Shown here piece by piece: positions 6,845 to 49,268 of a stretch of 64,000 nucleotides of DNA. The notes beneath the pieces were generated by a model that was not told the DNA's origin, did not search any database, and saw only the letters and a program-made list of their open reading frames with translations. Origin of the DNA: a virus; the IMG/VR virus record IMGVR_UViG_3300036820_000006, positions 35,276 to 99,275 of that record; one strand, written 5' to 3'. The position numbers and the translations under genes were made by a program. How positions within the stretch are numbered: position 1 is the first letter of the stretch; each line of letters begins with the position of its first letter.

Positions 6845-7429
6845 ATGAAACAACTCACGCTCACGCTCAAGCCTAAGTCCAAGCTCGACCGCAGGTGCTT
6901 CCTCAAACTCACAGGCACGGCTGCGGCAATCACTGTGATACCTAGCTCGCTGCTGCTCTCTGGCTGCAATTCCGAATCCATCGTGCAGGGCCTCAACATC
7001 GTGCTTCAGTCGGCCGAAGGCATTCTCAACGTGCTTGCGCCCGGTGATCCATGGGCTGCGGATTTCCAGCAAGCGGTAGCCGCGCTGCAGCAGGCCGAGG
7101 CGGCATGGCAAGGCGGCGGCGCGATCAACATTATCGTGTCGGCGCTGAACACGCTGGAAGCGGTCACTGCTGTGGTTCCGTTCACCGCGCCTTATTCTGC
7201 ATTGATCGACATTCTCGTGGCTGGAATTGAATCAGTGCTGCTGCTGATTCAGAACCAGAATCCATCAGTGTCGGTCGCAGCGGCCGCGACTGCGCACCCG
7301 AATCCGCACGAGGGCAAATATCATCTGGGCAGGCCACATGCATTTCAGACCCCGGTGGGCGTTTACCGCAAGGCATGGAATGATGCCGTGAAAGCGAACC
7401 CCGTGCTGGCGGCGGCTAAGCTGCAGTAG
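6845..7429 (+). CDS. Twin-arginine (Tat) signal lipoprotein
   Basis: DRRCFLK Tat motif, a hydrophobic stretch and an LLLSGC lipobox. Confidence 0.7.
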   Translation: MKQLTLTLKPKSKLDRRCFLKLTGTAAAITVIPSSLLLSGCNSESIVQGLNIVLQSAEGILNVLAPGDPWAADFQQAVAALQQAEAAWQGGGAINIIVSALNTLEAVTAVVPFTAPYSALIDILVAGIESVLLLIQNQNPSVSVAAAATAHPNPHEGKYHLGRPHAFQTPVGVYRKAWNDAVKANPVLAAAKLQ

Positions 7430-7491
7430 GAGCTAGGAGCTGGGAGCTAGGAGCTGGGAGCTGGGAGCTGGGAGCTAGGAGCTGGGAGCTG
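7429..7491 (+). repeat. Tandem 7-bp repeat (GGAGCTR)x9
   Basis: Nine perfect GGAGCT(A/G) units between a stop codon and the ATG at 7495. Confidence 0.95.
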
Positions 7492-7494
7492 GCT

Positions 7495-11796: not shown

Positions 11797-12102
11797 CTAC
11801 TTGGGGTCAGGTTTGACGGGCATACCGAGGCGTTCCCTCAACTCGTCTTTGTCAATATCTGCACACGCTTTTCGATATTCCGCATCGGTAAGCCATAGCA
11901 GCCAGTCGGGCCAACCCTTCAGCTTGCCAGAGCCATACTTCCAGTCATGAATCCACTCAGAGAATGTCCGTCGCCTGAAGCATCTCTCTAGCAACCGAAC
12001 GCCCATAAGAATCACTACGTCGGGCGCATTCAACTCAATCAGCCGTTTCAGCCGGTCTCTCCTGATTCCATAGAGACTCCGTTCCACTATCAACTTACTC
12101 AT
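11797..12102 (-). CDS. Hypothetical protein, paralog of 47799-48101
   Basis: Shares KRLIELNAP..VI.M...LL..FR.RT..EW...P.WLL.L....YR with the second copy. Confidence 0.7.
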   Translation of the reverse strand: MSKLIVERSLYGIRRDRLKRLIELNAPDVVILMGVRLLERCFRRRTFSEWIHDWKYGSGKLKGWPDWLLWLTDAEYRKACADIDKDELRERLGMPVKPDPK

Positions 12103-12415
12103 GGCTTTCTCCTTTCGGTGCGCTGAGGGCGTCGTAGCGGCGGATTATGGGGGCAGCCTTACTTTGCGCTTCCCTAAACTCGCCCATCGTAATTACATCT
12201 TGATATCCCCTCAGCGCTTCTACGGCTTCGCGGAGGAGGTCAGGCTTGACCACATCAGAGGCGGCTTCTCAAGCGTCTAACAATGGAATCATTACGAGTT
12301 GCGGATGAACGCAGATCGTGCGGTTCTCACTAGAAGCAGATGTCACTCCCTTGCGCAATGCTGTTATCAGCTCCGGTGACAACTCGGGCCGCTGGTCCTG
12401 CTTTCCATCACTCAT
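12095..12415 (-). pseudogene. Hypothetical ORF interrupted by an in-frame TGA
   Basis: MSDGKQDQRP...LLDA*EAASDVV...KGESHE. TGA at 12269-12271. Both ends overlap neighbouring ORF ends. Confidence 0.45.
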
Positions 12416-12418
12416 GGC

Positions 12419-12778
12419 TCACCTTCTTTCCCGATGAGACTTTCTGGCGTTCAAGTGTTGCGCGCAGAAATCGCGACGGGATGCGAAGATGAACGAATCC
12501 GTCCTTGAAAGAGTTGTGACCCACCTCGGTCGGCAGTCCATGCGTGCGCACAACACCTTCATGCCGAGCCTGCCCGCTGCCAGCGTGAGCGCGTTCTTGA
12601 TGCTCATGGGCGGAATGAAAACTTCCTTGGTCTGAGGATCATAATGCAAATGCTCACGCCATGTGCGCTTGCGATAAGCATCGTAAGATTCTTGGTCTTC
12701 CTTTTCGGTTTCGTGGTAACGAGACTGCGAATAAGGTGATACTCCTTCAAGCTCGACGGTTGCGATGCGAACGGACAT
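12419..12778 (-). pseudogene. RAMP/Cas7-like protein, 3'-truncated after about residue 75 (candidate guide-RNA-binding effector)
   Basis: VELEGVSPYSQS first strand and VFIPPMSIKNAL..AA resemble the RAMP P.IP.SS.KG.LR signature. There is no C-terminal Gly-rich loop. After GMKV the sequence looks like the 3' end of another gene in a different frame. Confidence 0.55.
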
Positions 12779-12815: not shown

Positions 12816-12995
12816 ACGTTACGTTACATTACATCAAGCAGCGCGAAGTTGAGACACGATGCAGCACGCAGCAGAACGTTACAGGACGCAACGTAGCGCT
12901 GCACTGTGATGCCCCATGACGCGTTGCGAAACGACGCCCAACAGCACAGAATGCTGCGACATGCGGCGTTACGTAGCGACACGGAACGTTACGCA
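12816..12995 (-). ncRNA. Pentamer array A: 36 x (NN-CGY), putative gapped guide RNA
   Basis: On +, 36 in-phase units. Triplets: RCG 19, RCA 8, RTG 4, RAG 3, RCC 2. The last two bases vary. Confidence 0.85.
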
Positions 12996-13009: not shown

Positions 13010-13516
13010 TTACTCTTGAATGGCCTTGGACCCGAAAAGTTTCAGTGTCTCATCCATCGGCAGTGGACGAGTACGATTGCCAACCGCATCAGCGATCACC
13101 TTCTGCGTGCGCTCAGTAGCGCCCTTCTGGATGAACTGCAGAATCGTCAGCGAGGTATTGTGTTGCAGCTTTGACTGTGCGCTGAGCGAGTCGTAATCGA
13201 CTGCCTGCAACCGGCGCGATGCACGCTTGGCTGCCTTGCTGAGCTTGCGCAAGTCCGCAGTGCTTAGACTGGGAACTTCTTCATTGGGCACTAGCCGTAC
13301 GCCTCGGCCCCAGTCCACCACAAACACCATGCCTTGTTCACTGAGCAGCTTATTAGTTGATGTGGTAAGGACGTTGCGTCGATGCCGCACATCACACCCA
13401 CACAGGGCGTTCAGCTCGGTATACGTTACGGTCTCTCCCGGTTTGGCCTCGGCAAGCCGACGCAGAGCGATAGTAGTCTCAACCGCGAGATTACCCTTGA
13501 TTGGAATATACGGCAT
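13010..13516 (-). CDS. Accessory protein with a winged-helix-like N-terminus, flanked by arrays A and B
   Basis: 168 aa with GGGAG SD. PGETVTYTELNALCG...VFVVDWGRGVRL gives a wHTH-like pattern. Confidence 0.65.
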   Translation of the reverse strand: MPYIPIKGNLAVETTIALRRLAEAKPGETVTYTELNALCGCDVRHRRNVLTTSTNKLLSEQGMVFVVDWGRGVRLVPNEEVPSLSTADLRKLSKAAKRASRRLQAVDYDSLSAQSKLQHNTSLTILQFIQKGATERTQKVIADAVGNRTRPLPMDETLKLFGSKAIQE

Positions 13517-13546: not shown

Positions 13547-13646
13547 ACAGTTCGGTACGGTACGTCACGTGACATGAAGGTGCGTTACGGGACATCACCT
13601 CACGGGACGGGACGATGCGGCGCGTAACAAAAAGATATGCAACATT
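13547..13646 (-). ncRNA. Pentamer array B: 20 x (NN-CGY)
   Basis: acagt tcggt acggt acgtc acgtg acatg aaggt gcgtt... All triplets are within one mismatch of RCG. Confidence 0.8.
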
Positions 13647-19556: not shown

Positions 19557-19564
19557 CATTTATG

Positions 19565-19637
19565 TGCGAACCGAGGGGATCGAACCCTCGACATCACGAT
19601 TACAATTCGTGCGCTCTATCCACTGAGCTAGGTTCAA
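19565..19637 (-). tRNA. tRNA-Thr(UGU), slightly atypical
   Basis: D arm GCTCAGTGGATAGAGC, anticodon stem CACGA/TCGTG with loop ATTGTAA, T arm GAGGG-TTCGATC-CCCTC. 1:72 mismatch and no encoded CCA. Confidence 0.75.
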
Positions 19638-19684
19638 GTTCGCGGTTGTCAGTGCTCCACAGCACCGAACATAGTTGGCTCTGT

Positions 19685-19810
19685 CTAATCACGCTGCTCT
19701 ACCACTGAGCTACTCCCCCTCAGGGCAGCGAACGTATCTTTGAGTGAGGTCAGAGATCGCATTCGCTGCTTGGAGGGGAAGAAGGGATTCGAACCCCCGA
19801 CCACGCTTTT
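19685..19810 (-). ncRNA. Permuted tRNA-like element (3' half, hairpin, then 5' half)
   Basis: GGTCGGGGGTTCGAATCCCTT-CTTCCCC-TCCA lies upstream of GGGGGAG-TAGCTCAGTGGTAGAGC. The acceptor strands pair 7/7 with one G-U. Confidence 0.6.
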
Positions 19811-20039
19811 TGGGCCTTCTACTCTGTGCTGCTTCTGCTGCCGCATCAGTCTCTTGGGTGATAGCCTTAGTCTGCGCTCGCGGTACATGGCCGAGAGACT
19901 TCCTTTAGCTTGATCCCTGAGTCTGAGCCTTGAGTTACCCCTCGCGGGGTCACCCAAACTTGGGAAATGCTGGCGGGACAGATTTACGACCTTGCCTCTT
20001 ACCTCTCGGAACGGTCATGCGAGCGGCCAGCATCGAATT

Positions 20040-20115
20040 TGGTTGCGGGGGCTGGACTTGAACCAGCGACCTTGTGGTTATGAGCCACCTGTTCTACCAA
20101 CTGAACTACCCCGCC
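20040..20115 (-). tRNA. tRNA with CAU anticodon (Met type)
   Basis: Full 76-nt cloverleaf, loop CTCATAA, encoded CCA, 1:72 mismatch. Confidence 0.9.
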
Positions 20116-21726: not shown

Positions 21727-21801
21727 CCGTTACGCTACGAAACTATGCGGGACTGTAAGATATGGGACAATGCGCCACGTCGAGTTACGCGGCGGCACGA
21801 T
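21727..21801 (-). ncRNA. Pentamer array C: 15 x (NN-CGY)
   Basis: ccgtt acgct acgaa actat gcggg actgt aagat atggg acaat gcgcc acgtc gagtt acgcg gcggc acgat. Begins 2 bp after the upstream stop codon. Confidence 0.8.
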
Positions 21802-32001: not shown

Positions 32002-35000
32002 TCAGTTCGCCTGCGCTCGTTCCTCTCCCTCCCTCTTATCCATATCAGCAATCTCCTTAGCAGTCGCAGGCCGCGCCTGCACAAACGGTAGATGCATAAA
32101 TTTCTCCATGAATTCCTCTTGTGTGCCTTCATTCAGCACTTCAGTAAGAGGGCCATCCGCGCCCACGCCGAGCAAGCTATTGGCTACTCTACGTATCAAT
32201 GCAATCACATGCTCGCGCGTGCTGTGGACGGTCATGGTGTACCAGTTCTTTTCGTCTTTAGAATCGAAGAATTTGTCATCCTTGTGGTAACGGAAGCGAT
32301 AGTCGAGTTGGTAGAGCCTGCCGGGTTCAAGCTCAGTAGCGGCGGCCAGCCAGTCTTGTTTGGGTTGGATTGGCATGAACCAGATGCCGATTGTTTGCTC
32401 GGTCATGGTTATCATTGCTGTGGCTCCTTTGTGGAAACTGGAAGTTGGCTATGCAGTAGCAACACAGCCCTCATAATGCGTTGTAGCGTGCGACGCAGGT
32501 CGTCTGGCAAGGTGGCTAAGTCCACAGGCGCGAGTTTATGCTTCTTGTCGAATTGCAGAGGAGTCGCGCATTCAATGCCAAACGGTACAGTCGCCCGGCT
32601 TGGGACCGGAGGTAGATTCTAGTGGGTCCGCATTAGAGGCCGCGTCGAGCTTATGCCCACAGTTCGGGCAGAGTTGCAGCTTGAGTTTATGAGTTGACAT
32701 CTGGTTCTCCCCTTCACGTTATCCCTCATGTGGAATAGTTATATTCGTGGCTGCTACTGCCATGCCCGCCGCCGCCGTGCTCGGCGCTATTCAACAGCGC
32801 CGCAATACCAAACAGCAGCGCCAGCACCAAGCCAAGCGCCAGCAATGGCTTGCATATTCCCCATAGCCACAGCGGCAGGCTAGATTCTTCGCGCAGGAAT
32901 TGCTTCAGCGCCTGCTCGCGATTGATCTGGTCATGGTGGGTCATGCGGAAGCCTCCTTGCGCGGCTTGTAGCCCGCCATCTCATACGCACGCTGCTTTGT
33001 CCAGCAGTACGAATTGCTTCGGGCGCTCGTCTTCAGGATCAGTGAACACGGCGAACTCGTCCGCGTCGTAAGCGAGCGCGGCAGCTTCGAACGCGCCGTT
33101 ATCGACAATGCAGATAAGCGCTTTGTCGGCGGGGATATCGTTGAAAGATTCTGGCTGCGCGATTAGCTTGCCGTTGTGCCGCGTTGCGATAATGCGCGCT
33201 TTATCGTGGTCGCTGCCGGGGGTTTGAATGTAGTATCCCACAAGGGTTTATCTCCTTTTTTGGATTGCGATGCGATGCGATGCGTTACGCGGCGCTGCGA
33301 TGCGATGCGATGCGCTATGACAAGAAGCGACACAGTATGAAACGGTACTAAGCGCTACGTAGCCGCACGCTAAGGTTATGAAGAAGTTGAAGTTTTGGCT
33401 TTCTGAACTTTTTGAGCGAGCTTGCTGGCATCGAACCCTAGCTCGAATGGCTGCTCGCGGGTGATTTTTTCCACGCGTATGAATTCGACTTGTTTCATCG
33501 CTACGATGCCGTAGTCACGTAAACGCTCCAGTATTTCGCGCTTAGTGGGAAGCTTGGCAAAGCGCCACGTCGCGGGATACCACCACGTAATTACGGATAC
33601 ATAATGCCCACTACGGCACTGGTTGTAACCCGCTTGAAAGCGTAGCTCATAAGTGACTTGGCAGCATTCGCGCGAGCCTGCAGTGGTGTTGGTAGATGGC
33701 ATAGTGCCGTGCGCCTCCTTAGTTCCGCCTTAGTTCATCTTGCTCAAATCGGTTTCCTTGCCTACTGGAATCAGTGTTGCGCGGCCATGCTTGGAATCGA
33801 CTGAAATTGGCCCGCGCTGGCCGGTTGCGGCGGCTTTGATGGCGGCGGTAATGCTCGCGCCGATCTCGTCAGCATGTTCGGCCAAGTCGCGCATGTTCGC
33901 GCCGCCGAAGCTAATGCTGCCTTGGCCCAAGCTATCAATGACGGTGAAGTCGGCGTCTATGGCAGCCGTAGCCGTAGCATCAGCGGCATCAGCGGCAGCA
34001 GAGTCAGTAGCACTAGCACCGCCCTCAGCGACCGCCCGCATCAGCTTATCAAGCGAGCGCTCCACTGAGCGTTCCACCCCCGCACCTCCACGAATTTGAT
34101 TGCCAGCCGCTGCCGCAGTCCACAGCGCATTCGCGCCGCCGCCGATGAATGTGTTGCGCAGCAAGGAAATCATAATGAGCATGTGCTCATCCGGGTCCGG
34201 CGTACTGCCAGCAGCTATAAGTGCGGCATCCGCAGCGCTCTGTGCGTTGATGGCTTTGTCCAGCTCGAATAGCATCTGCTTGATAAAAGCATCCATGCCG
34301 CGCTTAGCCAGCTCAGCAATGCGTTTGATTTCCGCGCCTGTGGCTTCATCGCTGACTTCTTCGTCTTTCTTGGGAATGTACATGATGAATGTGTACCCCT
34401 TCTGTATGAGTGCAAGTGCGAGTGAGTGACCGGTGGAGTGACCGGTGGAGTAGTGACTAAGCTAAAATTTATCTTGCTTGGTGAAGCCCGGCGAGATGCG
34501 CGGCTTTTCAACTTTGGTAGCTTGGAGCGCCGCGTAGTGTGCAATAGTGTCTACGCAGATGGCGATGATAAGGTCGCCGTCTGTGTCATAGAACTCCAGA
34601 AAACGGAACTTTTGCTGAGGCTGACCTGAGCAGCCTTGAACAACCGTGGTCGATCCGTCCGTGTGCGCGACGGTAAATGCGAATGTCAGTTGCGTGTAGG
34701 TGTAGGTGGTGTTCATTGCGTTGCGCCCTCCCTTGGCGCATGACCTTTTTTGTTGGCTAGGCGATCTCAAACCGTCCGATAAACTTCTCGCATTCTGCGC
34801 ACGAGATGTATAAAGCGCCTTTATAGAAGGCAGTCTGCGTTGCCGCCTCAGGATGACAGCGCGCGGTAAGGTAACATAGGCCCACTGTCGTGCTTGTGAT
34901 CGCAGTTAGGTGCGGCACAACCCATCCCGGCTAGGGTGTGCGCGCTGGTAGCATGTTTATCTCTGGCCCATGCAGTGTAGTCGATCATTTTTTGGCCTTT

Positions 35001-36571
35001 CCTCTTTGGCGCGCTATAGATGCGTGAGCGGGCAGAAAAGATTCATCAGCTAGCTAGGTTCGCTCGGCTGAGGTTCGTTGCCCGTCATGCTTGATGAAAT
35101 ATTCCCAGCGGTCACGGCAGGCACGAGCCATGCCTTTGTGGTCGCCTTTGCTCTGCGCTTTGTAATAACGCTGGCTGAATGGCTCCGGCCATCTCCCGGC
35201 GTTGCTGAATAAAGTTCCCAATGCTACCCGATAGGACTGCTCAGGCAACCGCAGTGCTTCAATGGCTTTCCTCACCCAGTTCGTGCACGGGTTGCACGCC
35301 ATGCGTCGGTACTCTTTGCGTGTAACCTGATCCCAAACTGCCCAGCCTGCTGCGCAGCAGGTCATGCCGCAGTCGTCTTTCTGGGGGAAATCGTTTTGGT
35401 CATAGAATTTCGGCTCCGCCATAATCGCAGCAGTCATGCGCCGGATGCGACGGATGCAAGTTGCGCTGAGATTGCGCTTGGCGCGAGTGCGCTCAGCTTT
35501 GGTTATCTGTGTTGTCATCTTCGTAATCCTCCCTCTTACTTGCCTCTTGCCTCGTACTGAGTATGCTCATCCGCCAGCGCGCCCGCATCGGGCACATGGG
35601 CTACAGCCATGTGCGCCACCTGCCAGCGCCTGCGCTGTGCAGTGTAGTAGCAAACGCTCGGTGCCTGCGCTCCGCAGAATGGGCAGCTGGTGCTGATCCC
35701 GTAACCTCTACCCGCGCGTCGTGCTGAAAAGATACTCAGCGCATTCGCGGGCAAACTGTTTTGCAGGAAGGTTAGCGACTTCTGCAATGTGGTAGAGTTC
35801 GTTTTCGAGCTTGCCGACAGTGTAGGCGACGAACGATGGCGGGATGGTTGAGGCATAAGAAGATGCTCCTTGGTGAGTGGGGTGGATAGTAGAGTTACTG
35901 GGGGCCGGTGCAGCCATGGCACGCTGGTGGCGCTGAGCCTGCTCAGCCGCTTTCTTGCCCCGCCATTGCGCTTTGTACTGAGCGGTGGAAGAATAGTATT
36001 GCTTTGGCTTCGCAGCGGGAGGCTTGGCAGCCTTGGCACTAGATGGCAACGGTGGCCATACTACAGCGCCGGGATAGAGCCTGCCCCGCTTAGCGAGCAA
36101 CTTAGCGGCTTTCTTTTGGGTGATGTAATACTGCCCCTCTGGAAGCGCCGGACGAACGCCATACGCACGTTTGCCGCTAGTAGGCACAGGAGTCGCTGCC
36201 GTCGTCGCTGCCGCCAGCTTCTTAGCTGCAAGCTTACGAGCGCGCTTCTGCTGTGCCTTCTGCGCAATGCGGCTACGCTCAGCCTTACTCAGCTCAGTGA
36301 TCCCTTGCGCGCGCCGCGCCTGCCCAACTAGGGACTTCTTGCCAGGAATGCCGTGCGCGAACCACTTGTGCTTGCCCAGCTGGGTAGGCGACACATGCGC
36401 GAAGGTGCAACCGGGATAATCGCAAGCGCCTGCGAGTGTAGGTGAGTAGGCCGAGGTAACGTCGGCTACGGCGTCAGCGTCGTCGTTGGCGGCGTCGGCT
36501 ACGGCCTCAGGAACGGCCACGACATCCTGTATCGCTGCCGTGCTCTCTGGATTGAATATGCTGTAATCCAT
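32002..36571 (-). other. Run of hypothetical early/middle genes (32002-32415, 32726-32944, 32981-33241, 33376-33702, 33730-34383, 35054-35518, 35708-36571)
   Basis: Co-oriented ORFs with SD motifs. 35708-36571 has a C2H2 zinc finger (CDYPGC...HKWFAH) and a Lys/Ala-rich region. Confidence 0.6.
33267..33376 (-). ncRNA. Pentamer array D: 22 x (NN-CGY)
   Basis: gcgat x3 gcgtt acgcg gcgct gcgat x3 gcgct atgac aagaa gcgac acagt atgaa acggt actaa gcgct acgta gccgc acgct aaggt. Fills the intergenic gap. Confidence 0.8.
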
Positions 36572-49110: not shown

Positions 49111-49230
49111 TTCGTCCCGCATCGTTACTTGTTGTTGCGTTCCGTACCGCTCCGTATCGTAACGTCATGTTCCGTTCCATACTGTTCCGTATCGTGTCTC
49201 ATCGCATCGCGCCGCGCCGCATTGTAAAGT
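49111..49230 (+). ncRNA. Pentamer array E: 24 x (NN-CGY), on the + strand
   Basis: ttcgt cccgc atcgt tactt gttgt tgcgt tccgt accgc... All triplets are within one mismatch of CGY. Orientation follows local + transcription. Confidence 0.85.
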
Positions 49231-49235
49231 TTTCC

Positions 49236-49268
49236 ACAGGCAGGAGGGAGCAATCCCTCCTTTCCTGT
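49236..49268 (+). terminator. Hairpin directly 3' of array E
   Basis: ACAGG-c-AGGAGGGA-GCAA-TCCCTCCT-t-t-CCTGT with a GNRA loop. Confidence 0.65.

Follow-up and report, generated by a model that had tools for sequence, protein, structure and literature searches.

A putative solo VIPR-type guide RNA array in a phage with a truncated vipr gene, and its partial match to XrtA-system polysaccharide deacetylase genes

Introduction

VIPR systems were described only in 2026, and the natural targets known for them are rival mobile elements. Their protein, Vipr, is Cas7-like and polymerises on a guide RNA (vrRNA) composed of GGY/NN pentamers (bioRxiv 10.64898/2026.04.26.720920,.720927). Vipr hides each GGY and leaves the NN dinucleotides exposed for pairing with double-stranded DNA, of which two bases out of three are paired (the '1-nt skip rule'). 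Transcription is silenced in this way, and silencing has been reported from either strand (VIPR preprints, bioRxiv 2026). Variant scaffolds (NNNGG, YNNNG and NNNNG) were given in general terms (VIPR discovery preprint, bioRxiv 2026). In the reference system, the vrRNA is a small RNA of about 100 nt that co-purifies with Vipr. Solo vrRNAs are known in VIPR-null phages, an 18-bp footprint has been found wobble-aligned on the active-site codons of a recombinase, and satellites carry solo vrRNAs that redirect phage Vipr to host decoy sites (bioRxiv 10.64898/2026.10.15.759431). In the VIPR-null SUSP1-like phages, a single deletion of 1,114 bp removed vipr together with vap1, and one or two guides are left at that site.

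Class 1 CRISPR Cas7-crRNA filaments (type III Csm3, type VII Cas7) share the fold of full-length Vipr relatives and, like VIPR, have one protomer per guide repeat and bases that are flipped out periodically. VIPR pairs two of five guide bases to two of three target bases, whereas Cas7-crRNA filaments pair five of six. A periodicity of a triplet and a short spacer is also found in the binding sites of TRAP (trp RNA-binding attenuation protein), which consist of (G/U)AG triplets with spacers of 2-3 nt.

Here we describe a pentameric array, array E, in a 64,000-nt window of a phage genome of 99 kb (IMG/VR record IMGVR_UViG_3300036820_000006, positions 35,276 to 99,275; all coordinates below are those of the window). 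A first-pass annotation, made from the letters of the window, had interpreted this array as an RNA whose dinucleotides decode to a protein motif.

Results

Array E is one of five CGY arrays on transcribed strands

Array E lies where the first-pass annotation had placed it, and its phase runs without a break through all 24 pentamers (Table 1). The CGY triplet is perfect in 16 of the 24 units, the imperfect scaffolds being TGT, CTT, CAT, CTC and AGT, and all 24 have C or T as their third scaffold base. The NN dinucleotides read TT CC AT TA GT TG TC AC TC AT AA CA in units 1-12 and TC TC AC TC AT GT AT AT GC GC AT AA in units 13-24. A vrRNA was defined by at least four tandem 5-nt units with a conserved triplet and a hypervariable NN, and array E has this structure. 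Its RNA is pyrimidine-rich and predicted by RNA folding to be unstructured; no Rfam family matches array E, and promoter prediction returned none upstream of it. Units 7-10 and 14-17 have identical dinucleotides (TC AC TC AT), a caveat that had been raised from the start. This internal duplicated block, seven units apart, may trace how guides arise or diversify.

Array E is followed by the GNRA hairpin that had been noticed before, with an outer stem (49236-49240/49264-49268), an inner stem (49242-49249/49254-49261) and a weak T tail behind it. The hairpin is possibly a terminator, a stabiliser or a vrRNA tail. No hairpin of this kind is present at the other four arrays, and no conserved 3' tail is common to all five. 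At their 3' ends, arrays A, D and E have runs of identical units (aaCGT aaCGT in array A, three copies of atCGC in array D, atCGC atCGC gcCGC gcCGC in array E), which resemble the 'aaCGC aaCGY' with which CGY arrays next to intact vipr terminate. These runs may, judging from their sequence, serve as a clade-specific handle that replaces the pseudoknot.

The five arrays occupy four sites in the phage genome. A period-5 in-phase CG scan returned four arrays in the window, compared with 0.33 per dinucleotide-preserving shuffle (maximum 2); array C was added by reading the sequence, and a looser array caller recovers the other arrays too. Arrays A-D carry CGY on the minus strand and lie between minus-strand genes, and array E carries CGY on the plus strand and lies between plus-strand genes, which bears out the earlier observation that all five have CGY on the transcribed strand. 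Over the 117 units of the phage arrays, the scaffold is C in 75%, G in 82% and Y in 97%, the pyrimidine at position 3 being present in 113 units. Array C has genes for tRNA-Thr(tgt) and tRNA-Met(cat) on its own strand (19564-20115, minus strand), at a distance of about 1.6 kb.

Table 1. Coordinates of the arrays and associated features in the window
Feature	Position	Strand	Description or basis
vipr remnant, 119-aa ORF	12422..12778	-	Vipr homology in residues 1-75 only
Array A, about 36 units	12816..12995	-	between vap and vipr remnant
vap (Vipr-associated protein), 168 aa, intact	13013..13516	-	tblastn to vipr neighbours
Array B, about 17 units	13547..13631	-	upstream of vap
Array C, 15 units, solo	21727..21801	-	
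Array D, 21-22 units, solo	33267..33371	-	
Array E, putative solo VIPR-type guide RNA (vrRNA) array	49111..49230	+	24 phased NN-CGY pentamers
Array E, units 1-11 (E1), ending 'atCGT aaCGT'	49111..49165	+	like vrRNA 3' ends in related loci
Array E, units 11-19, antisense to [I/M]TIDVE[D/E]WF codons, wobble skipped	49161..49205	+	genome pattern scan
Array E, low-complexity 3' units (at at gc gc at aa), overlapping unit 19	49201..49230	+	
Hairpin, 5+8 bp stem, GCAA (GNRA) loop	49236..49268	+	RNA fold

The vipr gene of the phage is truncated and vap is intact

Just downstream of array A lies an ORF with 350 relatives at E up to 1e-3 among 1.84 billion representative proteins. The full-length relatives have 185-200 aa, and every relative aligns to residues 1-75 alone of the 119-aa phage ORF. 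The family HMM, compared with six frames of the complete 99-kb genome, matched at profile positions 2-72 only (E 3.7e-31). The rest of the gene was sought by tblastn with eight full-length relatives and with the family HMM, both at E up to 10; the Vipr thumb and the C-terminal region that bears the G-loop-like GxGRFRPxxGGxxGRF motif were detected in no frame of the genome, and neither an intact Vipr nor any other Vipr-like sequence was detected in these 99 kb. A vipr gene of the complete RAMP type (RRM core, thumb and G-loop) was thus not detected in the element that carries the arrays. In place of the 3' two-thirds of vipr, about 450 bp past the end of the Vipr homology (12102-12554, minus strand) contain short ORFs only, with no family match.

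Between arrays B and A lies an ORF whose homologue adjoins vipr in 35 of the 81 loci searched (tblastn, E 8e-24 to 3e-4), and we therefore assign this ORF as vap; it also matches phrog_5926. Array E is regarded as a solo guide on two grounds: vipr is truncated with no other Vipr-like sequence in the genome, and the array is 36 kb from the VIPR locus.

Arrays of the same type flank intact vipr genes of the same clade

A profile built from 73 full-length relatives of the remnant matches the SUSP1 Vipr protein (PDB 36pp, E 1.3e-10). The AlphaFold model of the closest full-length relative (P0002, pLDDT 96), which was not found in viral contigs, matches Cas7/Csm3 subunits of type VII and type III CRISPR complexes (Foldseek E ~3e-9). 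For the search of vipr loci the subset alignment A2 was used, the broad alignment A1 being too diverse.

Of the 80 viral loci in which vipr is intact, most have period-5 arrays adjoining it. CGC-type arrays are common among these loci, and in the loci that were read the arrays directly beside vipr have CGC on the vipr strand, so that the array type found here flanks vipr of the same clade and in the same orientation (CGC/NN in L069, L072, L073, L077, L079, L080, L085, L086, L107, L109, L114 and others). With one caller, 83 CGY-type arrays in intact-vipr loci have 8-27 units and 80% perfect units, and array E has 22 units and 73% perfect units under the same caller. In grammar, strand logic and length, array E agrees with the arrays found on the flanks of intact vipr genes in the same Vipr clade. 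On its sequence, array E is accordingly best classed as a putative new case of a known and very recently described kind of element, the VIPR guide RNA.

The scaffold of the phage arrays is CGY and not the GGY that is canonical for type II. Related consensi are allowed for in the discovery paper, so that the phage arrays fall outside the SUSP1 subtype but not outside the VIPR class. The fixed triplet varies among loci L068-L147 (CGC, GGC, CAC, GAC, CTC and GTC), whose Vipr clade has about 41-52% identity to P0002, and is CGA in L251. This variation suggests that the scaffold triplet may co-evolve with the base-binding pockets of Vipr.

The closest described systems are the type II VIPR systems of Escherichia phage SUSP1 and a Pseudomonas fulva prophage, with which the phage locus shares 5-base units of a fixed triplet and a free dinucleotide, the Cas7-like Vipr family, arrays on the vipr strand, a small DNA-binding-type vap (vap1 there) adjoining vipr, and a wobble-aligned match to coding sequence under the 1-nt-skip rule. 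It differs from them in its CGY scaffold, in the truncation of vipr, in that no conserved pseudoknot tail was seen, in the distance of 36 kb between array E and the VIPR locus of the phage, and in that the matched gene is a cellular exopolysaccharide gene rather than a satellite or prophage gene. With the VIPR-null SUSP1-like phages and the F5 satellites (bioRxiv 10.64898/2026.10.15.759431) it has in common that arrays are kept without a working vipr and that guides are wobble-aligned on conserved codons of an active-site type (putatively so in this phage), where 18 bp suffices in those systems. Unlike the VIPR-null SUSP1-like phages, this phage retains vap along with a stump of vipr, and its five arrays are spread over four sites. 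Compared with Cas7-crRNA filaments, it has no CRISPR repeats, spacers or other cas genes.

The second half of array E matches XrtA-system polysaccharide deacetylase genes

The first-pass annotation had read complementary dinucleotides of array E as AT AC AT GA GT GA GA TG TT, corresponding to I/M-T-I-D-V-E-D-W-F, and had assigned this motif to polysaccharide deacetylases of the DUF3473/XrtA type. Units 19-11, reverse-complemented, give exactly this reading, and the assignment was corroborated by the proteins encoded at matching sites, for which TIGR03006 (XrtA system polysaccharide deacetylase) was the best family in 10 of 10 sampled cases (eight above the curated cut-off) and Polysacc_deac_1 (PF01522) together with DUF3473 (PF11959) was found in 3 of 3. 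The Pfam PF01522 alignment begins after the matched motif, so that the catalytic role given to the motif by the first-pass annotation is presumptive.

The matching sites were collected with a pattern of units 19 to 11, reverse-complemented, with one free base between pairs (ATNACNATNGANGTNGANGANTGNTT). This pattern had 103 exact matches in 185,579 species (one genome each), compared with about 17 expected at even base composition; all 18 of the 18 positions of units 11-19 are thus matched in 103 species genomes. Among the 80 matches listed, about 72 are in frame on [I/M]TIDVE[D/E]WF, and the in-frame matches are mostly located 4-30 codons from the start of ORFs of 270-320 aa. When up to one mismatch was allowed, the pattern matched 32 times, in 31 of 301 genomes belonging to a single class, and the reversed-pattern control gave 2 matches. 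The vrRNA of array E is antisense to the deacetylase coding strand. The fit of the dinucleotides to the published 1-nt-skip rule is consistent with the earlier proposal that the arrays function as RNA.

Viral contigs contained a single match of the pattern. It does not extend past the nine units and is therefore judged to be due to chance, so that the motif is regarded as cellular and not viral; the match (L067:2849-2874) covers the last codons (…ITIEVDE stop) of a 346-aa ORF ending INCRCVITIEVDE. The phage genome has no deacetylase of its own and no self-target, its best own-genome match (26/48) being no better than that of shuffled guides. Of the five arrays, E is the only one with a match in the 8-kb regions around the deacetylase genes. 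The guide of array E was found neither in arrays of other viral contigs nor in the 80 vipr loci, and guides A-E matched rival VIPR loci at null level (83 loci, 511 kb). The published targets of solo guides are vipr genes, rival vrRNAs, satellites and REP decoys, and none of these was found for this phage.

Extent of the match and guide boundaries

Only 9-10 of the 24 units of array E match the deacetylase site. Averaged over the matches, the flanking units are at chance (2.56 of 10 upstream, 4.44 of 20 downstream), and with all 24 units (48 positions) the match at the site is no better than about 60%. A natural target was defined by an NN match of at least 80% under the 1-nt-skip rule, a measure whose result depends on where the guide begins and ends. 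In the deacetylase subfamily PTIITIDVEEWFHGHNYL, 22-23 of 24 positions are matched over units 11-22, which is not significant by itself because the matches are related to one another.

The last units of related arrays are, for instance, 'atCGC aaCGT' or 'aaCGC aaCGT'. Array E contains a pair of this kind twice, as 'atCGT aaCGT' (units 10-11) and as 'atTGT aaAGT' (units 23-24), which suggests that it may consist of two guides, units 1-11 and units 12-24. Its low-complexity 3' units were compared with the 3' end of array D and with CGY arrays beside intact vipr, one of which (L114) ends in 'atCGC atCGC atCGC aaCGC at', and they are probably a handle-like end rather than guide positions. If array E is parsed into two guides and units 19/20-24 are handle-like, the motif would explain the whole informative part of the second guide. 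By analogy, the published 18-bp footprint shows that a perfect footprint of 27 bp would be ample for function. A nine-unit pattern from units 10-2, which doubles as an internal control, had 0 viral matches and 10 metagenome matches, the latter in unrelated or no ORFs. The chance that some window of the phage guides matches a widely conserved motif was put at 10-30%, a rough a priori estimate that assumes roughly 240 windows over the five arrays and both strands.

The matched genes occur in many phyla

Perfect matches were found, among others, in Geobacteraceae, Desulfobacterales, KSB1, Zixibacteria, Ignavibacteria, Fibrobacteraceae, Gemmatimonadales, Planctomycetota and Acetobacteraceae. None of the genomes among the 80 matches listed is labelled Acidobacteriota. 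The search with this pattern, proposed by the first-pass annotation also as a means to identify the host, gave more matches than expected or than the control in the two scans; the spread of perfect matches over many phyla means that the pattern does not name a host. Matched loci with a GC content near the 55% of the phage are mostly Geobacteraceae-like. One of the five genomes with the best extended match carries an intact Vipr, and its CGA-type arrays and GC content of 66-72% make it an unlikely host.

Megablast of the array E region against cultured phages gave no match. A tblastn search with the phage terminase gave only 25% identity, so that the host could not be inferred from it either. 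The closest related phage in IMG/VR has a terminase 41% identical and shows no Vipr match and no arrays in the 22 kb around its terminase gene, by which the VIPR system looks like an accessory acquisition. Relatives of the neighbouring gene of array E were inspected in 65 loci and have no arrays.

Discussion

The interpretation that we prefer, and hold with about equal weight for and against it, treats array E as a solo vrRNA of the CGY type that depends on Vipr in trans and whose second half targets the deacetylase genes of the XrtA system. The original interpretation as a whole is partly supported: the RNA guide and the decoding of the motif stand, and its reach is limited by the match of only 9-10 of 24 units, the truncation of vipr and the lack of a resident effector. 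By extension from the SUSP1 work, array E would be transcribed along with the rightward early genes, each CGY would be gripped by a Vipr protomer, and the filament would present the NN dinucleotides, pair with two of three bases of double-stranded DNA and block transcription, with a silencing site 4-30 codons into the deacetylase gene. As the vipr of the phage lacks the thumb and the G-loop, the filament protein would have to be supplied by another element in the same cell, and the guide would otherwise be idle.

A more far-reaching proposal is that the phage, without a Vipr of its own, borrows that of another element and silences a chromosomal XrtA/PEP-CTERM exopolysaccharide gene via dispersed solo guides. 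We consider this distinctly unlikely. If true, it would represent RNA-guided remodelling of the host surface by a virus, with a target class and a purpose that have not been described for VIPR. The host gene as target and the modulation of a receptor, both put forward by the first-pass annotation, are candidate interpretations of the match, and a change of the host exopolysaccharide as the aim is speculative. The phage carries a glycosyltransferase-like gene, and an interest of the phage in surface polysaccharide would be plausible.

The alternative that survives best is that the VIPR system of the phage has been decaying since the loss of most of vipr, array E being inactive and its match to the deacetylase genes a fossil or an accident. 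This appears unlikely, though well short of negligible. It would account for a vipr gene reduced to residues 1-75, the rest of which is undetected anywhere in the genome, for the half of array E that has no identified target, and for a closest related phage (terminase 41%) without a Vipr match or arrays in 22 kb. Scaffolds are also somewhat more degenerate than those beside intact vipr (70-73% versus 80% perfect units), but this degeneracy is close to that of the latter arrays, and the five arrays are still in phase and all on the sense strand in a compact genome; 113 of their 117 units preserve the pyrimidine of the third scaffold position. Moreover, vap is intact, and published VIPR-null phages retain solo vrRNAs.

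According to another explanation, the solo vrRNAs load the Vipr of a rival element and divert it to a conserved, harmless chromosomal site, the deacetylase motif being chosen for its conservation and not for its function. The publication of satellite decoy vrRNAs and of solo guides in VIPR-null phages (bioRxiv 10.64898/2026.10.15.759431) provides a precedent, and the truncation of vipr in a phage that kept its arrays, together with a matched site that is cellular and has only one chance-like match in viral contigs, agrees with it. However, published decoys are multi-copy REP elements and the deacetylase is a single-copy gene, no phage guide matches rival vipr loci above the null (83 loci, 511 kb), and no co-resident CGY-type Vipr is known, which leaves this explanation quite improbable.

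That the arrays are not VIPR at all, but binding sites for some other oligomeric protein (TRAP-like or Rho loading, on RNA or single-stranded DNA) or the leader of a downstream 68-aa gene, is very improbable and largely refuted: the tract is pyrimidine-rich and unstructured, and its five-base period with a fixed triplet resembles TRAP sites, but identical arrays flank vap and the vipr remnant here and intact vipr elsewhere, the variable dinucleotides hold a specific in-frame match, Rfam gives no match and the loci of the neighbouring gene's relatives have no arrays. TRAP sites share with the arrays the periodicity of a triplet and a two-base spacer on the transcribed strand; here, no TRAP-like gene or attenuator context is present and the spacers are informative. 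The link of the arrays to vipr and vap was the ground for rejecting a TRAP-like or Rho-loading RNA site.

The case documents the CGY variant of the scaffold in clean form. It also shows five guide arrays persisting in a phage from outside the Enterobacteriaceae whose vipr is truncated, and it provides a guide for which a conserved cellular gene for exopolysaccharide modification is the one match that could be identified. If the target of our preferred interpretation is real, phages can switch off host surface pathways via a two-of-three code, and the decoding of guides could contribute to predictions, based on sequence alone, of hosts and of phage strategies.

Two further observations were made in the course of the analysis. 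In a bacterial MAG locus (L251), a tRNA-Leu(aag) of 74 nt (2207-2280) lies exactly between two CGA-type arrays, and the tRNA and arrays together (2085-2389) are located downstream of an intact vipr. By analogy with published hammerhead-interspersed arrays, this arrangement may reflect tRNA-mediated processing of guide arrays. In the phage itself, nine tandem copies of GGAGCTG (91% matches) are found at 7429-7492, at the junction of two plus-strand ORFs.
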